From: Planctomycetota bacterium
Lineage (GTDB): Bacteria; Planctomycetota; SZUA-567; H5-PLA8
Length of the DNA: 64,000 nt
Direction: 5' to 3'
Assembly (NCBI GenBank): GCA_038227875.1
Contig: JBBRPR010000014.1
Span: 117,401-181,400, forward strand
Below, piece after piece: positions 42,560 through 53,801 of this stretch (within the stretch, counting starts at the first letter, position 1; every line of letters begins with the position of its first letter). A program made the position numbers and the translations under genes. The notes under the pieces were generated by a model. It saw only the letters and a list, made by a program, of their open reading frames with translations, was not told where the DNA came from and ran no database searches.

Positions 42560-42688
42560 GACTCTGCTCTCCATAGGAATAAGTGACGTTATCCCCGCCC
42601 GGCGCACGAGGAAGTGTTGCAATTGGGAGTGACACACATTACGTTGGCAGTCACTTTCTTGCGTGCGACCGACCTACAAGGGGGCATA

Positions 42689-44596
42689 ATGACACTTCGC
42701 GTGTGTGGGCTGCTTTCGGTACTCCTCTTCGCAGCGGCGATCGGATCTGCACGCGCAGAAACACTTGAAATGAAGGACGGCTCGAAAGTTGTCGGCACGG
42801 TTGTTGAAGAAACCGATTCGGCGATCACATTAAAGGTCAAGTTCGGCACGATCATCTATCAGAAGAGCGAAATTAAAAATATCGATAAGGAAGGCGTTGT
42901 CCCCGCTCCGCCTGCAAAGGTGGCTGCGAAAAAGGAGCCACCTGCTCCTGCCGCTCCGGCGACGCCGCCGACCCCTGCCGTACCGCCGAAGGAAAAAGTG
43001 GAGTCCAAGCCCAAAACGGAAGTCGCGGCTCCAGCCAAACCAAAACCGGAGGAGGCGCCCCCGGCAGCGCCCAAGCCAAAAGAGTCCGATCCATTTGCTT
43101 CCACGCCGAAGCCGAAGCCGCAGCCGCAGCCGCGATCGAATCCTGACCCTTCGACGGAAGTCTCATCCGCGCCGCGCTCGAGCGGAGAAGGCGAACTGCG
43201 CGATGTCGTTGTGCTGAAGGCCGGCGGCGAGCAGCGTGGATTTCTCGTTTCCGAATCGGACACCGAGGTCGTATTCGACGTGGTCATGAGCGGTAAGAGC
43301 GTGGCGAAGACGATGCTGTCCCGGACCACCTTTCACCGCGGTGAAGTTGATTCCATCAAGAAGCTCACCGATGAACAGCGCGCCGCCGCGCTGAAGGATC
43401 TGAACAACGCCGCGAAAGAGGAAAAGCGGGACAAGGCTGCAGCACAGAACATCGAGATCGAGCCGTACAGCTGGCAGCTCAAGAACGACCCGAGCAAGTC
43501 TGTGCAGGTGAAGCGCGTCCAACTCACCCACTTCTCCATTGAATCCGACATTGAAGACGACGATCTGCTGCGCAAGCTCGCCTACCGGCTCGACAAGGTC
43601 TTCAATGCGTATCAGCAGTATTTCGGCGTGGACCGCAACGATGCCGTAAAAGTGCGCGTGATGATTTTCAAATCGATGGAGGAATTCTACGCCTCCAACG
43701 GCACCGGCATGCTGAATCCCGCGTTTTATAGCCCCCTCGACAGGCAAGTCCTGGCGGGATGCGATGTCAAAAAATACGAAATGCAGATTGCCGAAATCCG
43801 GGAGCGCCACAAAAAGCTCGAAATCGAACTCCACGATTGGAAGATCCGTGTTGAAGAAGCCCGCGCGGACGTGCGTGCCCAGGTCTCCAAAGCTTATGAC
43901 CAGGTCAATGCGGGAGGAAAGGGCGCCACGGCGGCCGGGCAGGCGGCGATGGAGAACATCAAGCAGCAGGAACGCGAATGGATGCTGGACGTGGGTGCGA
44001 AGGAAAAGCACGTCAACGAAATCCAGGACCTGATCTTCCAGTGCAACCGGCACAACGACGTCGTATTTGGCGAAGTGACCCAGCAGATGCTGTCGACCAT
44101 GTACCACGAGGGATTCCACGCGTTTCTGCACAACTTCCTGTTCGAATCGGAAGAAGCCCTGACCGTGCCGCGTTGGCTCAACGAGGGACTGGCGCAGTAT
44201 TTCGAAGCAGCGCGCCTGGAGAATGGGCACTTTATCCTTGGGCAGGACGTGCGCGAAAAGATGGCGATCCTGCGAAAATTCCGCAACGCCGAATCGCTCC
44301 TTCCGCTCGAAAAGCTCGTCTCCGGCGGCGCGGCCGACTACCAGGTTCATGAAATCGCCAATCTGGAACGCTCGACCAAGAACTACCTGCAGGCGTGGCT
44401 GCTGACCAGCGTGCTGGGCGACAAGGGCCGTTTGAAAAAGGAAATTCTGCAGGCCTACGTGACGGCAATGAAGAATAAGCCGGCACTGGAAGCCCTGCCG
44501 GTGCTCACGGGTATTCCCAACGATCAGCTCGAACAGGCGATGGAAGACAAGTTGAAGCCGGGATTCCAGGCCTCGCCGGAGCCGGAAAAGAAGTAG
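42689..44596 (+). CDS. Secreted DUF1570 / zincin-like protein with Pro-rich linker and coiled coil
   Basis: Signal peptide; HEGFH...PRWLNEGLAQYFE; AFYSP. Confidence 0.75.
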   Translation: MTLRVCGLLSVLLFAAAIGSARAETLEMKDGSKVVGTVVEETDSAITLKVKFGTIIYQKSEIKNIDKEGVVPAPPAKVAAKKEPPAPAAPATPPTPAVPPKEKVESKPKTEVAAPAKPKPEEAPPAAPKPKESDPFASTPKPKPQPQPRSNPDPSTEVSSAPRSSGEGELRDVVVLKAGGEQRGFLVSESDTEVVFDVVMSGKSVAKTMLSRTTFHRGEVDSIKKLTDEQRAAALKDLNNAAKEEKRDKAAAQNIEIEPYSWQLKNDPSKSVQVKRVQLTHFSIESDIEDDDLLRKLAYRLDKVFNAYQQYFGVDRNDAVKVRVMIFKSMEEFYASNGTGMLNPAFYSPLDRQVLAGCDVKKYEMQIAEIRERHKKLEIELHDWKIRVEEARADVRAQVSKAYDQVNAGGKGATAAGQAAMENIKQQEREWMLDVGAKEKHVNEIQDLIFQCNRHNDVVFGEVTQQMLSTMYHEGFHAFLHNFLFESEEALTVPRWLNEGLAQYFEAARLENGHFILGQDVREKMAILRKFRNAESLLPLEKLVSGGAADYQVHEIANLERSTKNYLQAWLLTSVLGDKGRLKKEILQAYVTAMKNKPALEALPVLTGIPNDQLEQAMEDKLKPGFQASPEPEKK

Positions 44597-44742
44597 TTCG
44601 GCTCCCGGGTATGCCCATTTTGATCGTCGGAAAGTTTTTATAGTGGTTGCAGCTGCACGCATATTTTTCAAAATTTGCACAGATTCTTAAATCCATTCAC
44701 CCACCTGCCCAGTAATAGCTTCACGGTTCCTGGAGTACGGCA

Positions 44743-45327
44743 TTGAAGACCGATGAAGAACTATTCTTAAGCGGCGGGGATACGGCCATGACCGAACTCG
44801 TGGGGCGTTATGAACGCCCATTATTTCGATTTCTGCTCCACCTGACCAATGATGCGCAACTGGCTGAGGACGTCTTTCAGGAAAGTTTCCTGCGGCTCCA
44901 TCGCTCGCGATCGACCTACCGGTCCGATCAGGCGCTCAAACCGTACCTCTACCGTATTGCGCTGAATGCGCTGCGCGATCAGCGCTCCCGGCAGCGGCCG
45001 TCGGTACCGCTGGAGACGGCGGCGCTGCAATCGCAAACGAATCCGGCTCTGCGCGCCTCCGGGCCCCGGCCGGACGATGCGTACGAGACTTCTGAAACGC
45101 AACGCCACATCCGCGCGGCGCTGGTGGCACTGCCGGAGAGCGAGCGCGAAGTCGTCGTGCTTCGCGTCTTCGAAGATCTGAGTTTTCCTGAGATTGCCCG
45201 CATTGTCGACATTCCCATTCCGACCGCCAAGTCTCGCATGCTGTACGCGCTCCGCCGCATGAAGCCGGCCCTGGAGCGCTACCTGAGCGGCGCGTCGAAC
45301 ATTTCTGCAAAGGATCTTGCGCTATGA
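44743..45327 (+). CDS. ECF RNA polymerase sigma factor
   Basis: LAEDVFQESF, LYRIA.N, LPESEREVV.L, IPIPTAKSRM; TTG start behind GGAG. Confidence 0.9.
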   Translation: MKTDEELFLSGGDTAMTELVGRYERPLFRFLLHLTNDAQLAEDVFQESFLRLHRSRSTYRSDQALKPYLYRIALNALRDQRSRQRPSVPLETAALQSQTNPALRASGPRPDDAYETSETQRHIRAALVALPESEREVVVLRVFEDLSFPEIARIVDIPIPTAKSRMLYALRRMKPALERYLSGASNISAKDLAL

Positions 45328-48300
45328 ACGAAGAAATGATTCCACCTGAACCCACGTCCGAGAATGAGCGTCGCCGCGAGACGATGTTGGCGTATTACCT
45401 TGGCGCGCTGGAACCCGAGCAGGAAGCGCTGATTCGCGGGCGTATCGAGACCAGCCCCGAATGGCAGGCCGCGCGTCTGGAAGCCAAGACGATGCTCAAC
45501 GGCCTCAAGCGCGACGCGCACGCCGGCACCGCGCCGGCGACGCTAGCCGAACGGACGCTGGAATCGTTGCGCAACGACGGCAAGCCACGCGCGGCCGAAA
45601 CTGCGGCGAAAGCCACTGTCTCACGCGCGGCCGTCAAACGGGATCGCGTCGCAGCGCCGGTCGCCTCGCCGCTGTTTACGAAAACGGTCCGCGTTTTCGC
45701 GGCGCTGTTCGTGGTGAGCTTGATCACGCTCGGAATTCTCGCCTGGAGCAACGCGGCGAGTTCCGTGTCGGCGCCGGCAATTTACTGGCGCACGGAGAGC
45801 GAATTGGCGTCTGGTGGGCCGTTTGCGCCGTCGCTGCAGATTCGCGATGCGGCCAGCGGTGTGCCGGCGTCAGCGTCCGTAACGGCGCAGCTTTACGACG
45901 AACGGGACAAAAGCAAAGTAATCCCCATCGGCACGGCATCGACCGATGAGACGGGGACTCTTGCCGCGACGAACTGGCGCGTGCCGGCAGTTCCCGCGGG
46001 AAAGTACATTCTGCAGATCTTGGCGCGATCGGGCCTGGGCACGGAACTCGACCGCGTCGAACACCCGGTCACCATTGCCGCCTCCAATCGCCTGGCGCTC
46101 GCACCGGATCGTACCCAGGCGCGGCCGGGCGAGACGCTTCACGTCCGCGCACTGGCCTTGTCGTCGGCCGGCCAGACGCCGGTCCGCAACACGCCGATTA
46201 CGTTCGACATTCTCGATCCGCGCGGCAACCGCATCAATCGTGTCGAAACGCGCACGTCTAATTTCGGACTCGCCTGGGCGGAATTCCGGCTCGACACCGC
46301 CGCTCCGGAAGGCGCGTACAAACTCACGGCAATCTCGGAAGGGCTCGCGGCCGAGCGCGAAGTGAACGTGAAGCAGTACGCGCTGCCGGCGTACCAGACT
46401 GTGATCGCCCCTGCGAAAGCGTGGTTCAAGAAGAATGAGACGATCAACGGCACGCTCGACGTCCACACATTTGACGGCCAGCGCATCTCCGATGCCACGA
46501 GCGATCTGACGCTAACCACCGCGACAGGCCAGGTCGTGAGCCAGCAGCATTTGAATCCCGCGCAAGACGGCCGCGCTGCGTTTTCGTTGCCGTGGAGCAG
46601 CAGCGATGACAGCGATCGCTTCGCGCTGATCCTGCATTCCAAAGTCACCGATGGCGGCGGCCGCGTCGTTGAATGCAAGAAGCCGATTTCCATCGCAGGC
46701 GGTGAACTGGTGCTCAGTGCGATTCCCGAAGCGCGGGAACTGGTGCCTGGCGTCGCCAACCGCGTTTACCTTCTCGCGCGCAGCCCGGATGGGCGTGGCA
46801 TGACGTCGCACCTGATCGTCCATCGCGGCGCCGAAGTCCAGGAGCTCGATACCGACGCGGCCGGTGTGGCGGCGCTGACAGTGGAAAATCCCGAGCGGCC
46901 GGCGGAGGTGATCGAGATCACCGACCGCGCGACCGGCGTCTCGAGGCGCGTGTCACTGCCCATTCGCGCCGAGAAAGACGGACGCCTGCTGCTGCGCACC
47001 GATCGCGCGATTGCTCAGGGCGGCCAGACGCTGACGGCCACGCTGCTCTGCGGCGGCGCGACGCCCACTTCCAATGGCGTGGCGCTGGTCTCCCTGCGCA
47101 AGGGTGGCAGCACGGTCTTCAGTAAAGGCGTGAAACTCAGCGGGGTATCGACGTCTGTGCAATTCCAAATTCCCGAAGGCAGCGCGGGGTTGTATTCGCT
47201 CGACACCGTGATGACCGTGGGGGCTGATGCGTGGACGGATCGCCGTTCGTTGCTCGTGACCAACAGCAGCAACGTGCGCGTGGTCGCGTCGGCCGATCGC
47301 GCGTCGTACAAGCCGGGTCAGCGCGCGCGCTTGAATTTCAACGTCACCGATGCGTCGGGCAAAGGCTTGGCGAGCGCCGTCTCGGTGCTCGCGGTTGACG
47401 AAGCGCTGCTAACGCTGACCGGCGAGAACCCCGGCCTGGCGCAGGCGCTGCTGAGCGACGAATCCGGCGCGCTGTCGCAGCCGGATTTGCCGCTGGACGT
47501 CCGCGACTTCGGCCCCGCGCAAGGCGATTCGCCGGCAGCGCTCGCGGCGCTGGCGCATGTCGCGCCGAAGTTGCCATCACCGAATTCTGAGCGTAACGAT
47601 TCAGAAGAATTCATCGATCACTCCGCGGCAAAACTGGAGATGGTACGCCACGAGAGAAAGCAAACGAACGACCTGCTGAAACAATGCGCGTGGGCACTCG
47701 GCGGTGTCAGTGCCGTGTTCGTATTCACGCTGCTTCTCATTTGGGAACTGAGCACCAACATATCTTTTCGGCCGCGAAACCTCGCACTCACCGGAAACTT
47801 TATCGGCTGGGTCACGGCAATTACCTTGGTTGCCGCACTGGGAATTCTGCTCGTCGCTCCGTTCCACAGACCCGGCTTGTTTGTCACTTTAATGGCCGCC
47901 AGTCTGGTCGTGTCCCACGCCGTGCTGATCTGGCATGGAATTGCCCTTACCCCCAATGCGTCGGCGCTGAAGGTCATTACCGTCACGGTGCTATCCGACT
48001 GCTACCTGCTGGCCGCGGCCTGCCTCGCGGCACAATCGCGCAACCAGGACGGAGAGGTGCTTCTTTTCATTCTCTTTGGCGCCCTGCCAGTCGTCATCGC
48101 GCAATTGACGCAATCAGTACCGGGGAACCTGGTCCGTATCGGCATAGCGTGTGCCGGACTCTTCTTCTTCGCTGCGTTAATTCTTCCAACGCTGGGCCGG
48201 GCGCGGGAGAAAGCCGCGGCTAACGGCCGCGGATTTGTAGTGGCTGCGAAAGCGGAGGCCTTTGAGGAAGAGACTGCACTGTTATCCAGTCGTCCTCTTC

Positions 48301-50393
48301 TCATATCGTACTCTCACACATCGGCCCCTCATGTACGCTGGAACTTCCCCGAGACGATGATCTTCGCTCCCGAGATTATCACCGACGAAAACGGCAACGC
48401 GTCGTTCGAGCTCGGTGTCGCCGATTCGCTCACCCGCTGGCGCGTGCAGACGGATGCCGTCGCACAGTCCGGCGGCGTCGCGCAGACGCAGTCGCAGCTC
48501 ATCGTCACGCAACCGTTCTCCGTCGATCTGATTCTCCCCGCCAGCGTCACGGCCGGCGACGTCCTGCGCGTGCCGGCGGTCGTCAGCAATCACACCGGGA
48601 CCGCACAGCGTGTCGACCTGGCATTCGATGTCACCGGAGCGGTGAGCACCGATGGACTGACGCGAGAACTGATGGTCGGACCCGATGCCTCCGCGGCGGC
48701 GGAGTTCACGATCCGCTTTACATCATCAGGAACGGCGCGGTTCCGCGTCACGGCCCGGCCGCAGAATGCGCCCGCTGAAGATCAGGACGCCATTGAGCGG
48801 ACGCTGACGGTGATTCCCGACGGCGAAGCGGTCGCGTTCTCGGCCTCGGGCCCGATCGCCGAAAACGGCACCCTCGAGCTTGAAGTGCCCGACAACGCAA
48901 TCCCCGGCACCGTGCGCGCGACTCTCAACCTCCATCGCGGTCCGCTGACGCAGATGATCGAGGGCCTCGACTCGATGCTTCAGGAACCGCACGGCTGCTT
49001 CGAGCAGACGTCGTCGAGCACCTATCCGAACATCATGATCCTGCGCTACCTGAAAGCCCATGAAGTCAACAACCCGCAGGCGCTGGCGCGCGCGAAACAA
49101 TTTATCGAGCAGGGTTATCAGCGATTGCTGACGTTCGAAGTCAACGGCCCCAGCGGCAGCTTCTCGCTGTTCGGGCAGGCGCCGGCGAGCACCTGGCTGA
49201 CGGCCTATGGACTGCAGGAATTCAACGACATGTCGGCGGTCTTCCCGGTCGATCCGGCGCTGCTGGAACGGATGCGCGGATACCTGATCGGAAAGATGCG
49301 CAACGATGGCTCGTTCGATGTCGACGAATACCACGGACATGAGGCGAGCGATCGCGGGCTGGCGGCGACGGCGTATGTCGTCCACGCGCTCGGCGCATTT
49401 GCGCCCGCGGAGAGCATCCGCTACCTCGCCAATCACCGCGACGAAATCCGCGGCGATCCGTATCTCTGCGCGCTCTGCGCCAATGCGCTGTTGCAGTCCG
49501 ATCGCGCGACGGCCAGCCAGCTCGCGTCCAATCTGCCGCGCCTATTTGAGCTCACCCCCGACGGCAAGCAGGCGACGCTGCCCGCGAAATCGACGCTCGC
49601 CTGGGGCTACGGCCGCACCGCGTCGACGGAAGCCTCGGCACTCGGAGCGCTCGCCTTGCTGCAGACCGGACAGGAGATCGACGCGGCTCAGAAACTCCTC
49701 GCCGGATTGCAAGGGCGCGGCGCGTGGTCGTCCACGCACGCCACGGTGCTCGCGTTGAAAGCGCTGGAATGCGCCGCGAGCCGCACGCAGCAGAGTGGTG
49801 CGCTGCGGATCGTCGCAGAACTCAACGGCGACGCGCTGCCGGTCATCGACCTGAAGGCCGAAGAGACCGGGCTTCCCGTCTCGATCCCGCTGACGCTGCC
49901 GAAAGGAAAATCGAAGCTGCGCGTGCAGGTCAGCGGCGGCGCGCTGGTCGCGCGCGTGACCGGCAGCGCGTGGGTGCCGTGGCAACAGCACGCTCCGAAA
50001 TCTTCGCTATCCAGTCCGTTCTCCGCACTCACCACGTACGACGTGATGAACGTCGCGAAAAATCAGAGTGTGCTCGGCACGCTGAACCTGACTGTGAAAG
50101 GCCGCCGCGCCGAAGTGCCGATGATCGAATGGGGCCTGGCCGCCGGTTTCCAGCCCAACAGCACCGATCTCGATGCGCTCAAAACGCGCGGAGTGATCAC
50201 GCGCTGGGAACTCTCGGGGCGCAGCCTCCACCTTTATCTGCCGGATCTGAACGAGGGCAGCAAGACGCTGCTGTCGGTGCGCTTCACGCCGACCGCCGGC
50301 GGCACGCTGACCGCGCAGCCGGGCCGCGTGTACGAGTACTACAGCCCCGCGGACGCGGCTTCGATTCAGCCGGTGAAGTTCGACGTGAAATAA
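45324..50393 (+). CDS. Anti-sigma-like N-terminus fused to membrane-embedded alpha-2-macroglobulin (thioester protein)
   Basis: LAYYLGALEPE anti-sigma-like helix; TM; DR...RPGET, AVDEALL, VRWNFPET, GCFEQ thioester, GYQRLL, STWLTAY, VYEYY. Confidence 0.85.
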   Translation: MNEEMIPPEPTSENERRRETMLAYYLGALEPEQEALIRGRIETSPEWQAARLEAKTMLNGLKRDAHAGTAPATLAERTLESLRNDGKPRAAETAAKATVSRAAVKRDRVAAPVASPLFTKTVRVFAALFVVSLITLGILAWSNAASSVSAPAIYWRTESELASGGPFAPSLQIRDAASGVPASASVTAQLYDERDKSKVIPIGTASTDETGTLAATNWRVPAVPAGKYILQILARSGLGTELDRVEHPVTIAASNRLALAPDRTQARPGETLHVRALALSSAGQTPVRNTPITFDILDPRGNRINRVETRTSNFGLAWAEFRLDTAAPEGAYKLTAISEGLAAEREVNVKQYALPAYQTVIAPAKAWFKKNETINGTLDVHTFDGQRISDATSDLTLTTATGQVVSQQHLNPAQDGRAAFSLPWSSSDDSDRFALILHSKVTDGGGRVVECKKPISIAGGELVLSAIPEARELVPGVANRVYLLARSPDGRGMTSHLIVHRGAEVQELDTDAAGVAALTVENPERPAEVIEITDRATGVSRRVSLPIRAEKDGRLLLRTDRAIAQGGQTLTATLLCGGATPTSNGVALVSLRKGGSTVFSKGVKLSGVSTSVQFQIPEGSAGLYSLDTVMTVGADAWTDRRSLLVTNSSNVRVVASADRASYKPGQRARLNFNVTDASGKGLASAVSVLAVDEALLTLTGENPGLAQALLSDESGALSQPDLPLDVRDFGPAQGDSPAALAALAHVAPKLPSPNSERNDSEEFIDHSAAKLEMVRHERKQTNDLLKQCAWALGGVSAVFVFTLLLIWELSTNISFRPRNLALTGNFIGWVTAITLVAALGILLVAPFHRPGLFVTLMAASLVVSHAVLIWHGIALTPNASALKVITVTVLSDCYLLAAACLAAQSRNQDGEVLLFILFGALPVVIAQLTQSVPGNLVRIGIACAGLFFFAALILPTLGRAREKAAANGRGFVVAAKAEAFEEETALLSSRPLLISYSHTSAPHVRWNFPETMIFAPEIITDENGNASFELGVADSLTRWRVQTDAVAQSGGVAQTQSQLIVTQPFSVDLILPASVTAGDVLRVPAVVSNHTGTAQRVDLAFDVTGAVSTDGLTRELMVGPDASAAAEFTIRFTSSGTARFRVTARPQNAPAEDQDAIERTLTVIPDGEAVAFSASGPIAENGTLELEVPDNAIPGTVRATLNLHRGPLTQMIEGLDSMLQEPHGCFEQTSSSTYPNIMILRYLKAHEVNNPQALARAKQFIEQGYQRLLTFEVNGPSGSFSLFGQAPASTWLTAYGLQEFNDMSAVFPVDPALLERMRGYLIGKMRNDGSFDVDEYHGHEASDRGLAATAYVVHALGAFAPAESIRYLANHRDEIRGDPYLCALCANALLQSDRATASQLASNLPRLFELTPDGKQATLPAKSTLAWGYGRTASTEASALGALALLQTGQEIDAAQKLLAGLQGRGAWSSTHATVLALKALECAASRTQQSGALRIVAELNGDALPVIDLKAEETGLPVSIPLTLPKGKSKLRVQVSGGALVARVTGSAWVPWQQHAPKSSLSSPFSALTTYDVMNVAKNQSVLGTLNLTVKGRRAEVPMIEWGLAAGFQPNSTDLDALKTRGVITRWELSGRSLHLYLPDLNEGSKTLLSVRFTPTAGGTLTAQPGRVYEYYSPADAASIQPVKFDVK

Positions 50394-52574: not shown

Positions 52575-53801
52575 ATGGACCCAGTTCCACCCGAACCGCC
52601 GCCATCGGAGCGACCGCCTGAGCCGCCCATCGGACCTGCTCCATCTGAGGTGTCTCCGCCCCCTTCCACCGGGGTCAATCCTGCTCAGGGTGACAGTGCA
52701 GTTCCTGCATCGGTTCCTGACGTCCCGATTGAAGTTCGCCCTCCGCTCGCGCCGCCTCCCACGCTGAGTTCCCAGTACGAACAGTGGCTGTTGAGCAACC
52801 TTGCGCCTCTTGGGGTAATCGTGGTGGCGCTGGCGATGATGCTGGCACTCGGACCGTTGCTTGTGAAGCCCACGACTATTCGGCCGGTGGTTCCGGATTC
52901 GCCCGTGACGCCGCTTTTTCCAGGCATGGAAAAACCGATGCGCGTGACGTGGCCGAACCTCGGTGTGATCTGCCTGGTCGGGCTGGTGCTGATGTATATT
53001 TTTACGCCCGACGCACGGCGCTGGTTCAAGCAGTACACGCCGCGGCCGCTGCCGGCGTTGAAGATCCTGGATCTGCTGGCGCTATTGGCTTCGTCGCGGG
53101 CGGTGGCGTTGCTGCTGGTAGTGATCGCGCAACGCGCCAAAATTCCACTACTGGCGGCGGGAAGTGAGAAAGCGATTCTCGCCGCGGAGATGATCCTCGG
53201 CGATGCCATTTTTCTGGCCGTGGTCTTTCTGGCGATCTGGCTGGCGCGACAGCGCGTGGGCGGGCCGCATGGTTCGATGGGCGTGTGGCCGTTCTGGAAA
53301 CTGGTGAACACGGAACGTTCGGTGCTCAACGACATCGTGCTGGGCGCGGCCTGTTATCCCGTGTTCTTTTTACTTGGGAATCTTTTCTTCGTGCCGCTGG
53401 GCCACGAACTGGCGGAGTACTTCGGCTACAACCCCAAACCGCACCCGCTCTTGTTGGCGCTGCGGGAACAACTGCAGCCGTGGGAGTTGGTTGTGTTTGT
53501 GCTGTCCGCCACGATTGGTGCGGCGTTCTTCGAAGAACTCATTTTCCGCGGTGTGCTCTACAACGGCCTGCGCCGCTACGTCGGCCCGTGGCTTGGCGGG
53601 GCCGCCGCGGCGCTGGTGTTCGCGACGCTGCATCCGGTGGGCGACTGGCTGGGCATTTTCTTTCTGGGCATGATGCTGACGTGGCTCTACGACAAGACCG
53701 GGCGGCTGGTCTCGAGCATGACGCTGCACTTCATCAACAATTCGGTGGCGGTGATTGCGACGTTGAGCTTGGAATATTTGCAGCGCTATCTGAAGAAATG
53801 A
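52575..53801 (+). CDS. CPBP (Abi/CAAX) intramembrane glutamic endopeptidase
   Basis: FFEELIFRG, FATLH, HFINN motifs; Pro-rich N-terminus. Confidence 0.9.
   Translation: MDPVPPEPPPSERPPEPPIGPAPSEVSPPPSTGVNPAQGDSAVPASVPDVPIEVRPPLAPPPTLSSQYEQWLLSNLAPLGVIVVALAMMLALGPLLVKPTTIRPVVPDSPVTPLFPGMEKPMRVTWPNLGVICLVGLVLMYIFTPDARRWFKQYTPRPLPALKILDLLALLASSRAVALLLVVIAQRAKIPLLAAGSEKAILAAEMILGDAIFLAVVFLAIWLARQRVGGPHGSMGVWPFWKLVNTERSVLNDIVLGAACYPVFFLLGNLFFVPLGHELAEYFGYNPKPHPLLLALREQLQPWELVVFVLSATIGAAFFEELIFRGVLYNGLRRYVGPWLGGAAAALVFATLHPVGDWLGIFFLGMMLTWLYDKTGRLVSSMTLHFINNSVAVIATLSLEYLQRYLKK

Follow-up and report, generated by a model that had tools for sequence, protein, structure and literature searches.

Gene Organisation and Domain Architecture

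The window analysed here, i.e., the whole stretch of 64,000 nucleotides taken from contig JBBRPR010000014.1 (positions 117,401 to 181,400; assembly GCA_038227875.1) of a Planctomycetota bacterium, carries at 45324..50393 a gene whose reading frame is open throughout and which encodes a protein of 1689 amino acids (aa) with seven predicted transmembrane (TM) helices. Based on the open reading frame (ORF), Pfam matches, hydropathy and an AlphaFold model, we describe the product as a fusion of an anti-sigma factor and a thioester alpha-2-macroglobulin (A2M), with six of its seven helices placed at the A2M bait site. Upstream lies the gene of a 194-aa extracytoplasmic function (ECF) sigma factor (44743..45327), the stop of which overlaps the A2M start at 45324–45327. 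All features are given in coordinates of the window and lie on the forward (+) strand.

Pfam recognises, each above its cut-off, MG2 (aa 261–340, 71.4 bits), the bait-region domain A2M_BRD (aa 557–698, 26.4 bits), the A2M domain (aa 1011–1099, 63.6 bits), the thioester domain TED (aa 1210–1481, 104.6 bits) and A2M_recep (aa 1600–1679, 27.7 bits). The thioester motif GCFEQ, which is of the CXEQ type, is found inside TED (aa 1224–1228, nt 48993–49007), and in a 22-row alignment its G, C, F, E and Q all stand in nearly invariant columns. Judging from this domain chain and the CXEQ motif, the protein is a member of the A2M/thioester-protein family, with a predicted thioester. Among solved relatives, CD109 was found at 1.2e-35 and human A2M at 4e-31; the homology to solved A2M, CD109, TEP1 and C3 begins at aa 995–1005, which is the place of the bait. 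The MG domains together with the bait-region domain, predicted to be periplasmic, occupy aa 146–698 (45759..47417) and give a beta-rich model with a predicted local distance difference test (pLDDT) mostly >85. The C-terminal A2M half (aa 1004–1689; 48333..50390) contains the A2M domain, the thioester domain and a domain of the receptor-binding type.

Membrane Helices at the Bait Site

Between A2M_BRD and the A2M domain there is an insert of 305 aa, which, searched alone against Pfam with E values up to 10, matched no family. It contains the six-helix TM block (aa 788–958; 47685..48197), delimited by means of hydropathy, AlphaFold models and the family alignment. A first-pass annotation of the same DNA, made from the letters alone, had noticed six hydrophobic helices between the landmarks AVDEALL (aa 690, nt 47391) and VRWNFPET (aa 1004, nt 48333), with LILPTLGRAREKA (aa 952) as a further landmark. 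Our helix counts, which rest on Kyte-Doolittle hydropathy and AlphaFold secondary structure, agree with this observation. The hydropathy profile shows one N-terminal TM segment (122–140) and six block peaks of 1.97–2.44 (788–806, 826–844, 851–869, 884–902, 910–928 and 936–954). AlphaFold2 applied to the block alone, with a 14-row alignment, gave six long helices (pLDDT 74.8, predicted template modelling score 0.63), and in a model of aa 1–1200 the helices are found at 767–811, 813–843, 851–875, 881–903, 908–929 and 936–962. In this longer model, the block has a pLDDT of 50–65, with values <50 at 751–760 and 955–999.

The annotation had also argued that an even number of helices keeps both A2M halves on the same side of the membrane, and the distribution of charges fits this view. 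In 14 sequences, the density of lysine and arginine (K+R) is 0.17, 0.13 and 0.19 in loops a–b, c–d and e–f, against 0.08 and 0.05 in loops b–c and d–e. Such a bias is consistent with a predicted topology in which both ends of the block, and with them both A2M halves, are outside the cytoplasm (out-in...in-out). Within the block, T831 (47814–47816) is invariant in the 14 rows of the alignment, and H865 (47916–47918) and D892 (47997–47999) are kept in 13 of 14, the exception being the sequence of genome G021; the His and Asp motifs are present in database proteins P0017 and P0028 too.

The linkers on the two sides of the block differ in character, as can be seen from the AlphaFold model and the family alignment. 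The pre-block linker (aa 699–787; 47418..47684) has 89 aa in this protein and 76–149 aa among relatives, is partly conserved (identity 0.375, this and all further identity figures for parts of the protein being mean pairwise values over 14 family members), and is made up of a helical remnant of the bait-region domain, the short low-confidence stretch at 751–760 and an amphipathic helix that enters the membrane. The post-block linker (aa 959–1003; 48198..48332), 45 aa long here and 45–95 aa among relatives, is disordered in the model (pLDDT <50 at 955–999) and has an identity of 0.186, the lowest of all regions; the conserved PRLRWDFPET follows it directly. Since this linker is disordered, hypervariable and abuts PRLRWDFPET, the bait appears to be split by the block, not replaced by it, and, on the alignment and the model, the post-block linker is most likely the remaining bait. 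The earlier view that the block had replaced the bait was thus right as to the site, and the word "replaced" was too strong.

Conservation, Distribution and Integrity of the Block

A search for orthologues in 41 related genomes found copies spanning the insert in G003, G004, G008 and G021, the last being of another family of the same class, while the copy in G005 is cut by the end of its contig. The complete orthologues each show the N-terminal helix and six hydrophobic peaks at the same site. The ordinary A2M frames of G023, G032, G014 and G017 (an unpublished genome used for this comparison only), each about 1400 aa long, have the N-terminal helix only, or none. In the protein database, 27 matches were obtained at E ≤ 1e-20; the family members among them, P0002–P0013 and P0017, are hypothetical proteins or are named "alpha-2-macroglobulin family protein" or "MG2 domain-containing protein" and come from Planctomycetota metagenome bins. 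Altogether, about 15 Planctomycetota proteins in public data and 5 of 40 related genomes have the block at this site; the block is no one-off insertion. A profile of the block, run against 1.84 billion representatives, matched 12 proteins at E ≤ 0.001, among them P0028, which is new, and P0029, a fragment; with the exception of the marginal P0030, a GGDEF-EAL membrane protein (9.6e-4), all are members of the block-bearing A2M family. When the same profile was run against 401 genomes across the phylum, five matched, with A2M genes in the genome of the window itself (G000), G004, G021 and G059, and one pilin in G389. A word-index search with the insert found the query itself only, and ESM Atlas gave no usable match.

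The idea of an exchangeable module with conserved flanks, put forward in the annotation, is borne out by the identity values, which amount to 0.223 in the block against 0.462 from MG1 to the bait-region domain and 0.547 in aa 1004–1190, and by distant A2Ms that hold two, four, six or no helices at the site (see below). The first TM helix (TM1), the predicted anti-sigma membrane anchor (aa 118–145; 45675..45758; hydropathy peak 2.4, helix also in the model), has a mean identity of 0.425, higher than that of the block. The length of the block is steady at 156–182 aa, and it is the linkers that vary.

The block was described as AT-richer than the rest of the gene, and the composition agrees: GC is 0.583 in the block and 0.65 on either side, and GC at third codon positions (GC3) is 0.684 in the block and 0.533 in the post-block linker, against 0.775 and 0.812–0.816 in the flanks. 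As GC3 is lower too, the AT-richness does not come from hydrophobic codons alone. A dip is also seen in the G021 orthologue (locus L016; 0.684 against 0.95 and 0.93).

Of the outcomes that the annotation had named as refuting its observation, namely an odd number of helices, a chimeric junction and a one-off insertion, none appeared. A 7442-nt contig, assembled independently from run X1, covers 47200–48600 and crosses both junctions without a difference or a joint. Its DNA does not count as independent, since X1 is possibly the source sample. A contig of 173 nt from another sample of the same study matches 48166–48338 exactly, and runs X2 and X3 gave short flank pieces only, with 3–4 differences each. 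Even with the lower GC and GC3 over the insert, an assembly chimera or a decaying one-off insertion is for practical purposes refuted by these contigs, by the open frame and by the same block at the same site in independent assemblies.

The Bait Site in Other Relatives

The bait site of more distant relatives also receives helices, although the even counts that follow depend on the hydropathy threshold. By hydropathy, six helices are present at this site in P0002–P0013, P0014 (Longilinea arvoryzae), P0016 and P0020, four in P0015 and P0018, and two in P0019, P0024 and P0025, with no convincing helices in P0021, P0022, P0023, P0026 and P0027. P0014, P0016 and P0020 have six bait helices, yet only an N-terminal signal anchor, and their blocks were missed by the block profile, which means that these blocks either arose independently or have diverged beyond detection.

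Other kinds of insert were noticed as well. P0022 has T2SS-G (pseudopilin)-like modules and a CarboxypepD_reg domain at the bait site (aa ~720–1266), and P0023 by eye carries a module like that of P0022 at the same place (aa ~700–1049). Half-size A2Ms were seen on long contigs, e.g., P0039 (840 aa, 41.5-kb contig) and P0046 (926 aa, 1.13-Mb contig), as well as P0045 and P0058; they begin at or near the bait, some within a DUF1559-like stretch, and may represent split genes, frameshifts or miscalled starts.

Linkage to an ECF Sigma Factor

What the annotation overlooked is the sigma gene upstream and the anti-sigma domain at the N-terminus. The product of 44743..45327 matches Pfam Sigma70_r2 and r4 and the NCBIfam model TIGR02937 (sigma70-ECF) with 89.5 bits against a cut-off of 42.9. 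In every locus examined, the A2M gene is immediately preceded by an ECF sigma gene in the same orientation: the window, G003, G008, G004 and G021, with a partial one in G005. The sigma orthologues in G003, G004 and G008 have 53–57% identity and the partial one in G005 73%, while the ECF sigma factor in G021 has 23%. Within the short flanks available for the related loci, there are no other neighbours in common, and this includes the CPBP and DUF1570 genes of the window. The neighbours of the A2M gene, apart from the sigma gene, encode a DUF1570 protein (42614..44596, immediately upstream of the sigma gene), an enolase-superfamily protein and an Rce1-like intramembrane protease of the CPBP type (52575..53801, 2.2 kb downstream of the A2M gene).

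The N-terminal cytoplasmic domain has 117 aa and is followed by the TM helix. Its putative anti-sigma part (aa 1–85; 45324..45578) is modelled as four helices (13–25, 31–43, 45–64 and 74–84) with a pLDDT of 82–87, and with a mean identity of 0.556, it is the best-conserved region of the protein. A search with aa 1–159 matched the NCBIfam anti-sigma family NF052375 (3.4e-7, 30.5 bits against a curated cut-off of 100) and PRK13920 (7.4e-7, 29 bits against a curated cut-off of 225). The HxxxCxxC zinc motif is absent from the domain, and phmmer with the N-terminal 99 aa against PDB sequences returned one match at chance level, a SCAN-domain protein (E 0.018). In a modelled complex of the sigma factor with aa 1–115, the score was 0.73, while the best of three controls reached 0.02; the mark applied to this score is reached by 116 of 157 solved complexes and by 2 of 215 mismatched pairs. 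Between runs, at least 83% of contacts agree, the partner pLDDT is at least 74, and the contacts fall on sigma region 2 (13–54) and region 4 (141–181). Since complexes of sigma and anti-sigma factors have already been solved, the pass of the model may reflect likeness to them. As a prediction, the modelled interface supports binding of the sigma factor by the N-terminal domain.

Upstream of the sigma gene, a promoter-like motif, TAAATCC-N17-GTAATA (44688..44717), is a candidate for an ECF-type autoregulated promoter. It is kept in four of four aligned orthologous upstream regions, in which the surrounding DNA is poorly alignable, and the strict pattern occurs a single time in the 9.34-Mb genome, at the sigma/A2M operon; correspondingly, a regulon search with it across the genome gave no site outside this operon, and with looser patterns chance matches would drown any true ones. 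Being conserved and unique, the motif fits an autoregulated operon, in which it would act as the promoter recognised by its own sigma factor. A scan for sigma-70 promoters and terminators gave no more than shuffled sequences did.

The same genome contains a second sigma/A2M pair on contig C28 (L021:667-6791), in which an ECF sigma gene (176 aa) overlaps the start of an A2M gene. This A2M of 1865 aa has a thioester; one TM helix lies at its N-terminus, and none falls within its bait of about 110 aa. Because the pair has no block, the coupling of A2Ms to sigma factors is broader than the block and does not depend on it.

Origin of the Last Block Helix

The last block helix with its tail (aa 936–966; 48129..48221) had been likened to the helix of type IV pilins and DUF1559 proteins, and the comparison with the organism's own proteins strengthens this. 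In an ungapped alignment, made by eye, with a DUF1559-type pilin encoded on contig C29, 15 of 30 positions are identical, and 13 of 15 over AALILPTLGRAREKA, with Pro22 of the pilin alpha-1 helix in register. The tail LLPxLxxAREx matches pilins, and the DUF1559 continuation is lost beyond AREKA. By eye, the positions of pilin Gly-1, Phe1 and Glu5 are occupied by Pro, Gly and Arg, which means that the prepilin-peptidase site and the assembly glutamate are gone. Four occurrences of the pattern [LIVM][LIVM]PxL[GSAQ][RK]A[RK]E were counted among 37,714 six-frame ORF pieces, namely in two true prepilins, in the A2M and in an internal pilin-like helix of an 810-aa ORF on contig C1. Recent gene conversion from pilin genes was considered and rejected, as the DNA identity is only 31/45.

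In relatives, the likeness is stronger. A generic pilin hidden Markov model (HMM) was built from 79 pilin-type N-termini, the genome containing at least that many by a motif and hydropathy filter. At ≥15 bits it finds 100 domains in the genome, i.e., the 79 training sequences and 21 others that are pilin-like in look. The same helix scores 20.7 bits in P0007 and 16.3 bits in P0028, and directly upstream of the A2M domain the scores are 31.7 bits in P0037, 18.6 in P0039, 25.8 in P0046 and 22.8 in P0057; domains of at least 15 bits stand just before the A2M domain in 6 of 51 relatives with enough upstream sequence. The first 34–42 positions of Pfam DUF1559 (PF07596) are matched above the cut-off of 23.3 bits in P0037 (29.1), P0039 (38.1) and P0046 (30.5), with starts 13–21 aa before the A2M domain. 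The pilin that the block profile matched in G389, a canonical prepilin protein of 291 aa, was found via positions 171–207 alone. By eye, the tails of P0028 and P0007 resemble different pilin classes of this genome, Glu5 is in register in P0046 and P0057, and a Gly-1 with Phe/Met+1 site is absent from every internal copy inspected. Taken together, these comparisons indicate that the last helix is a descendant of a pilin-type signal anchor, of which the copy in the window keeps a remnant only.

Other proteins of the organism seem to reuse pilin-type anchors internally. Two paralogous large, secreted-looking proteins on contigs C1 and C18 (ORF pieces of 810 and 1001 aa) have an internal pilin-like helix at aa 648–694 and 824–870, with 28.0 and 22.9 bits by the pilin HMM, a DUF1559-like or PilE-like tail and no prepilin cleavage motif. 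Reuse of pilin-type signal anchors as internal helices would bear on the means by which a chain, once it has made a cytoplasmic loop, resumes the export of very large periplasmic domains.

Proposed Mechanism and Alternatives

We give about an even chance to the best-supported reading, in which the block works as a membrane staple and as an anchor for re-export, and the anti-sigma/A2M protein around it senses proteases. The gene pair would consist of an ECF sigma factor and a membrane anti-sigma factor whose extracytoplasmic part is a complete thioester A2M. At the bait site, the chain would enter the cytoplasmic membrane as three helical hairpins, so that both A2M halves would remain outside the cytoplasm, and the flexible linkers on either side of the block would stay exposed as a cleavable bait. 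The block would be a lineage-specific enlargement of a simpler two-helix hairpin, which other A2Ms of planctomycetes carry in this position, with the returning helix of the hairpin derived from a type IV pilin/DUF1559 signal anchor that has lost its peptidase site. This helix may serve as an internal start-transfer anchor and restart the export of the C-terminal half of about 730 aa. At the same time, the block would fasten the thioester half, and the bait with it, to the membrane, and after a cut in the bait both fragments, together with the covalently caught protease, would be kept at the cell surface beside the anti-sigma helix. Protease attack, or loss or rearrangement of the exposed part, would then free the sigma factor, which would re-induce its own operon. 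What the sequences and models show is the architecture with its conservation, the topology indicators, the pilin derivation, the sigma linkage and a modelled interface; re-export, stapling, protease sensing and autoinduction are inferred.

Several observations speak against the staple and re-export reading, or at least call for caution. The immediate flanks of the block are rich in K/R (0.20 and 0.27), which taken at face value is contrary to the positive-inside rule; basic outer flanks are seen in pilins too. The hydropathy scan is crude, and at a stricter setting, it gives odd counts in some relatives (five helices in P0003, five in P0013, three in P0015 and one in P0019) and four helices in P0011; only a laxer scan gives six in P0003, six in P0013, four in P0015 and two in P0019. 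A plain anchor needs no invariant Thr, His and Asp within the membrane, and their presence hints at a more specific role. The GC3 dip in G000 and G021 has no counterpart in G003, G004 and G008. Both anti-sigma family matches are under their curated cut-offs. As for the pilin origin, the last helix of this copy scores 2.7 bits with the generic pilin HMM, a value which 626 non-pilin domains of the genome also reach, and with no Pfam match in the insert, the pilin-like stretch is here a remnant.

The conserved polar residues lead to the alternative that we take most seriously, though only tentatively and well short of an even chance. Here, the six helices and TM1 would form a seven-helix bundle; cleavage of the bait would trigger the A2M conformational switch, and the block, packed on the anti-sigma helix, would transmit it through the membrane and free the ECF sigma factor. 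The route, just as doubtful, could be the Thr/His/Asp cluster or the short cytoplasmic loops, and another conceivable outcome of the same kind would be exposure of TM1 to a site-2 protease. The conservation of T831, H865 and D892 within an otherwise fast-drifting block is what such a relay would need, and TM1 drifts less than the block; furthermore, all sampled relatives with an anti-sigma-like N-terminus (the family itself, P0018, P0024 and P0025) have hydrophobic bait helices. However, the C28 pair of the same genome combines an ECF sigma factor with an A2M that lacks bait helices, P0014 has six of them with nothing but a signal anchor at its N-terminus, and the block is modelled with low confidence in the long construct. 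If a signal did pass in this way, a bacterial complement-like protein would trap an attacking protease and also signal its presence to the genome.

A tie to pilin machinery, which the annotation had proposed, is improbable for this copy. The last helix would in that case dock at the platform of a type II secretion system or type IV pilus, or join the DUF1559 pilin pool, thereby placing the trap at a secretion site or making it a substrate of the machinery. The homology to the pilin alpha-1 helix, with Pro22 in register, is real, the genome is rich in pilin-type N-termini, Glu5 persists in two relatives, and T2SS-G-like modules occupy the bait of P0022 and, by eye, P0023. Against this, none of the inspected internal copies has Gly-1 with Phe/Met+1, Arg stands at position 5, DUF1559 sequence ends after AREKA, and it is hard to picture how an internal helix could be pulled out of a protein with seven TM helices.

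Slightly less credit still is due to the idea of an intramembrane-protease substrate, also raised in the annotation. In this case a site-2, rhomboid or CPBP-type protease would cut the block itself, not the soluble linkers, and the block would act either as a bait at membrane level or in regulated proteolysis of the anti-sigma factor. Pro and Gly, which break helices, are common in the block, among them those of the conserved VPxxT and LLPxL motifs, and the Rce1-like CPBP gene is near. The downstream genes, this one among them, are nevertheless unmatched in the short flanks of related loci, and the conserved residues are tied to no known cleavage motif, which leaves the suggestion wholly speculative.

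With the same low probability, the block could be an autonomous membrane module (a channel, transporter or enzyme) that was inserted by chance into a loop of the A2M. Three polar residues conserved within the membrane and a six-helix bundle modelled at moderate confidence would suit it. However, a Foldseek search with the block structure against the PDB found nothing at E ≤ 0.001 (best E 0.32), and a wide structural search returned generic or designed helical bundles only, with a best Z of 10.7 that is under the level the tool treats as meaningful for such bundles. Apart from the marginal P0030, the block profile found the block only inside the block-bearing A2M family among all representatives searched, and 22% identity is low for the core of an enzyme or transporter.

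An architecture of this kind may allow a cell not only to trap the proteases that attack it but also to sense them. Should the proposed wiring prove functional, it would be a directly testable example of foreign proteolysis being sensed via the macroglobulin switch, and, if true, the A2M would represent a new kind of anti-sigma input domain.

Comparison with Known Systems

RseA, RsiW and RsiV are single-pass ECF anti-sigma factors with extracytoplasmic sensor domains, and among the bacterial A2Ms, those of type I are lipoprotein-anchored. Like the former, the protein of the window has at its N-terminus a helical domain in the cytoplasm, which the model places between regions 2 and 4 of the sigma factor, then one TM helix and a putative sensor part outside, and its gene adjoins the sigma gene. 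It differs in that the putative sensor is a thioester A2M of 1500 aa that is predicted to re-enter the membrane six times. Its last block helix resembles the hydrophobic alpha-1 helix of the Planctomycetota DUF1559 (PF07596) pilin-like proteins in Pro22 and the LLPxLxxAREx tail; unlike in those proteins, the helix is internal, lacks Gly-1/Phe+1, has Arg at position 5 and is followed by no DUF1559 body.

Complement C3, C4 and C5 belong to the same family and have an insertion at the same site: the homology to C3 resumes at aa 1005 of our protein, corresponding to C3 residue 764, which we take to lie just past the inserted anaphylatoxin domain. Their insert is a soluble disulphide-rich domain released by convertases, whereas here it is a membrane bundle. 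The bait/anaphylatoxin site is shown to be an insertion hot-spot in bacteria too, with two, four or six TM helices, or pseudopilin-like modules. Among the matches listed, CD109, human A2M and TEP1 are closer in sequence to our protein than any bacterial entry.

The published bacterial A2Ms are of two types, both with a soluble bait: type I (E. coli ECAM/YfhM, Salmonella Sa-A2M), which has a thioester and is encoded together with PBP1c, and type II (Pseudomonas MagD), which has no thioester, belongs to the mag operon and receives its membrane helix from MagB (PMC5764988). Our protein shares with type I the build of a protease trap of multiple MG domains with a putative bait, CXEQ thioester and TED, situated at the cytoplasmic membrane and facing the periplasm (PMC5764988; PMC4498604). 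In contrast to type I, it has a cytoplasmic anti-sigma domain with a TM anchor, an operon with an ECF sigma gene and six TM helices in the bait; none of the neighbouring genes matches a PBP, and the N-terminus is a cytoplasmic domain followed by a TM helix, in place of a secretion or lipoprotein signal. Like MagD, which is seemingly regulated, it is an inner-membrane-associated A2M that relies on TM segments, but it possesses the thioester and has the membrane segments in its own chain, while MagD is described as having no TM helix of its own (PMC5764988).

Our literature search found no paper joining an A2M with an anti-sigma or ECF factor, and no relevant paper on a bacterial A2M bait with TM helices or on bacterial A2M in Planctomycetes. 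The build presented here, a thioester A2M linked to an ECF sigma factor, with its bait threaded through the membrane, adds a third to the two known types of bacterial A2M.

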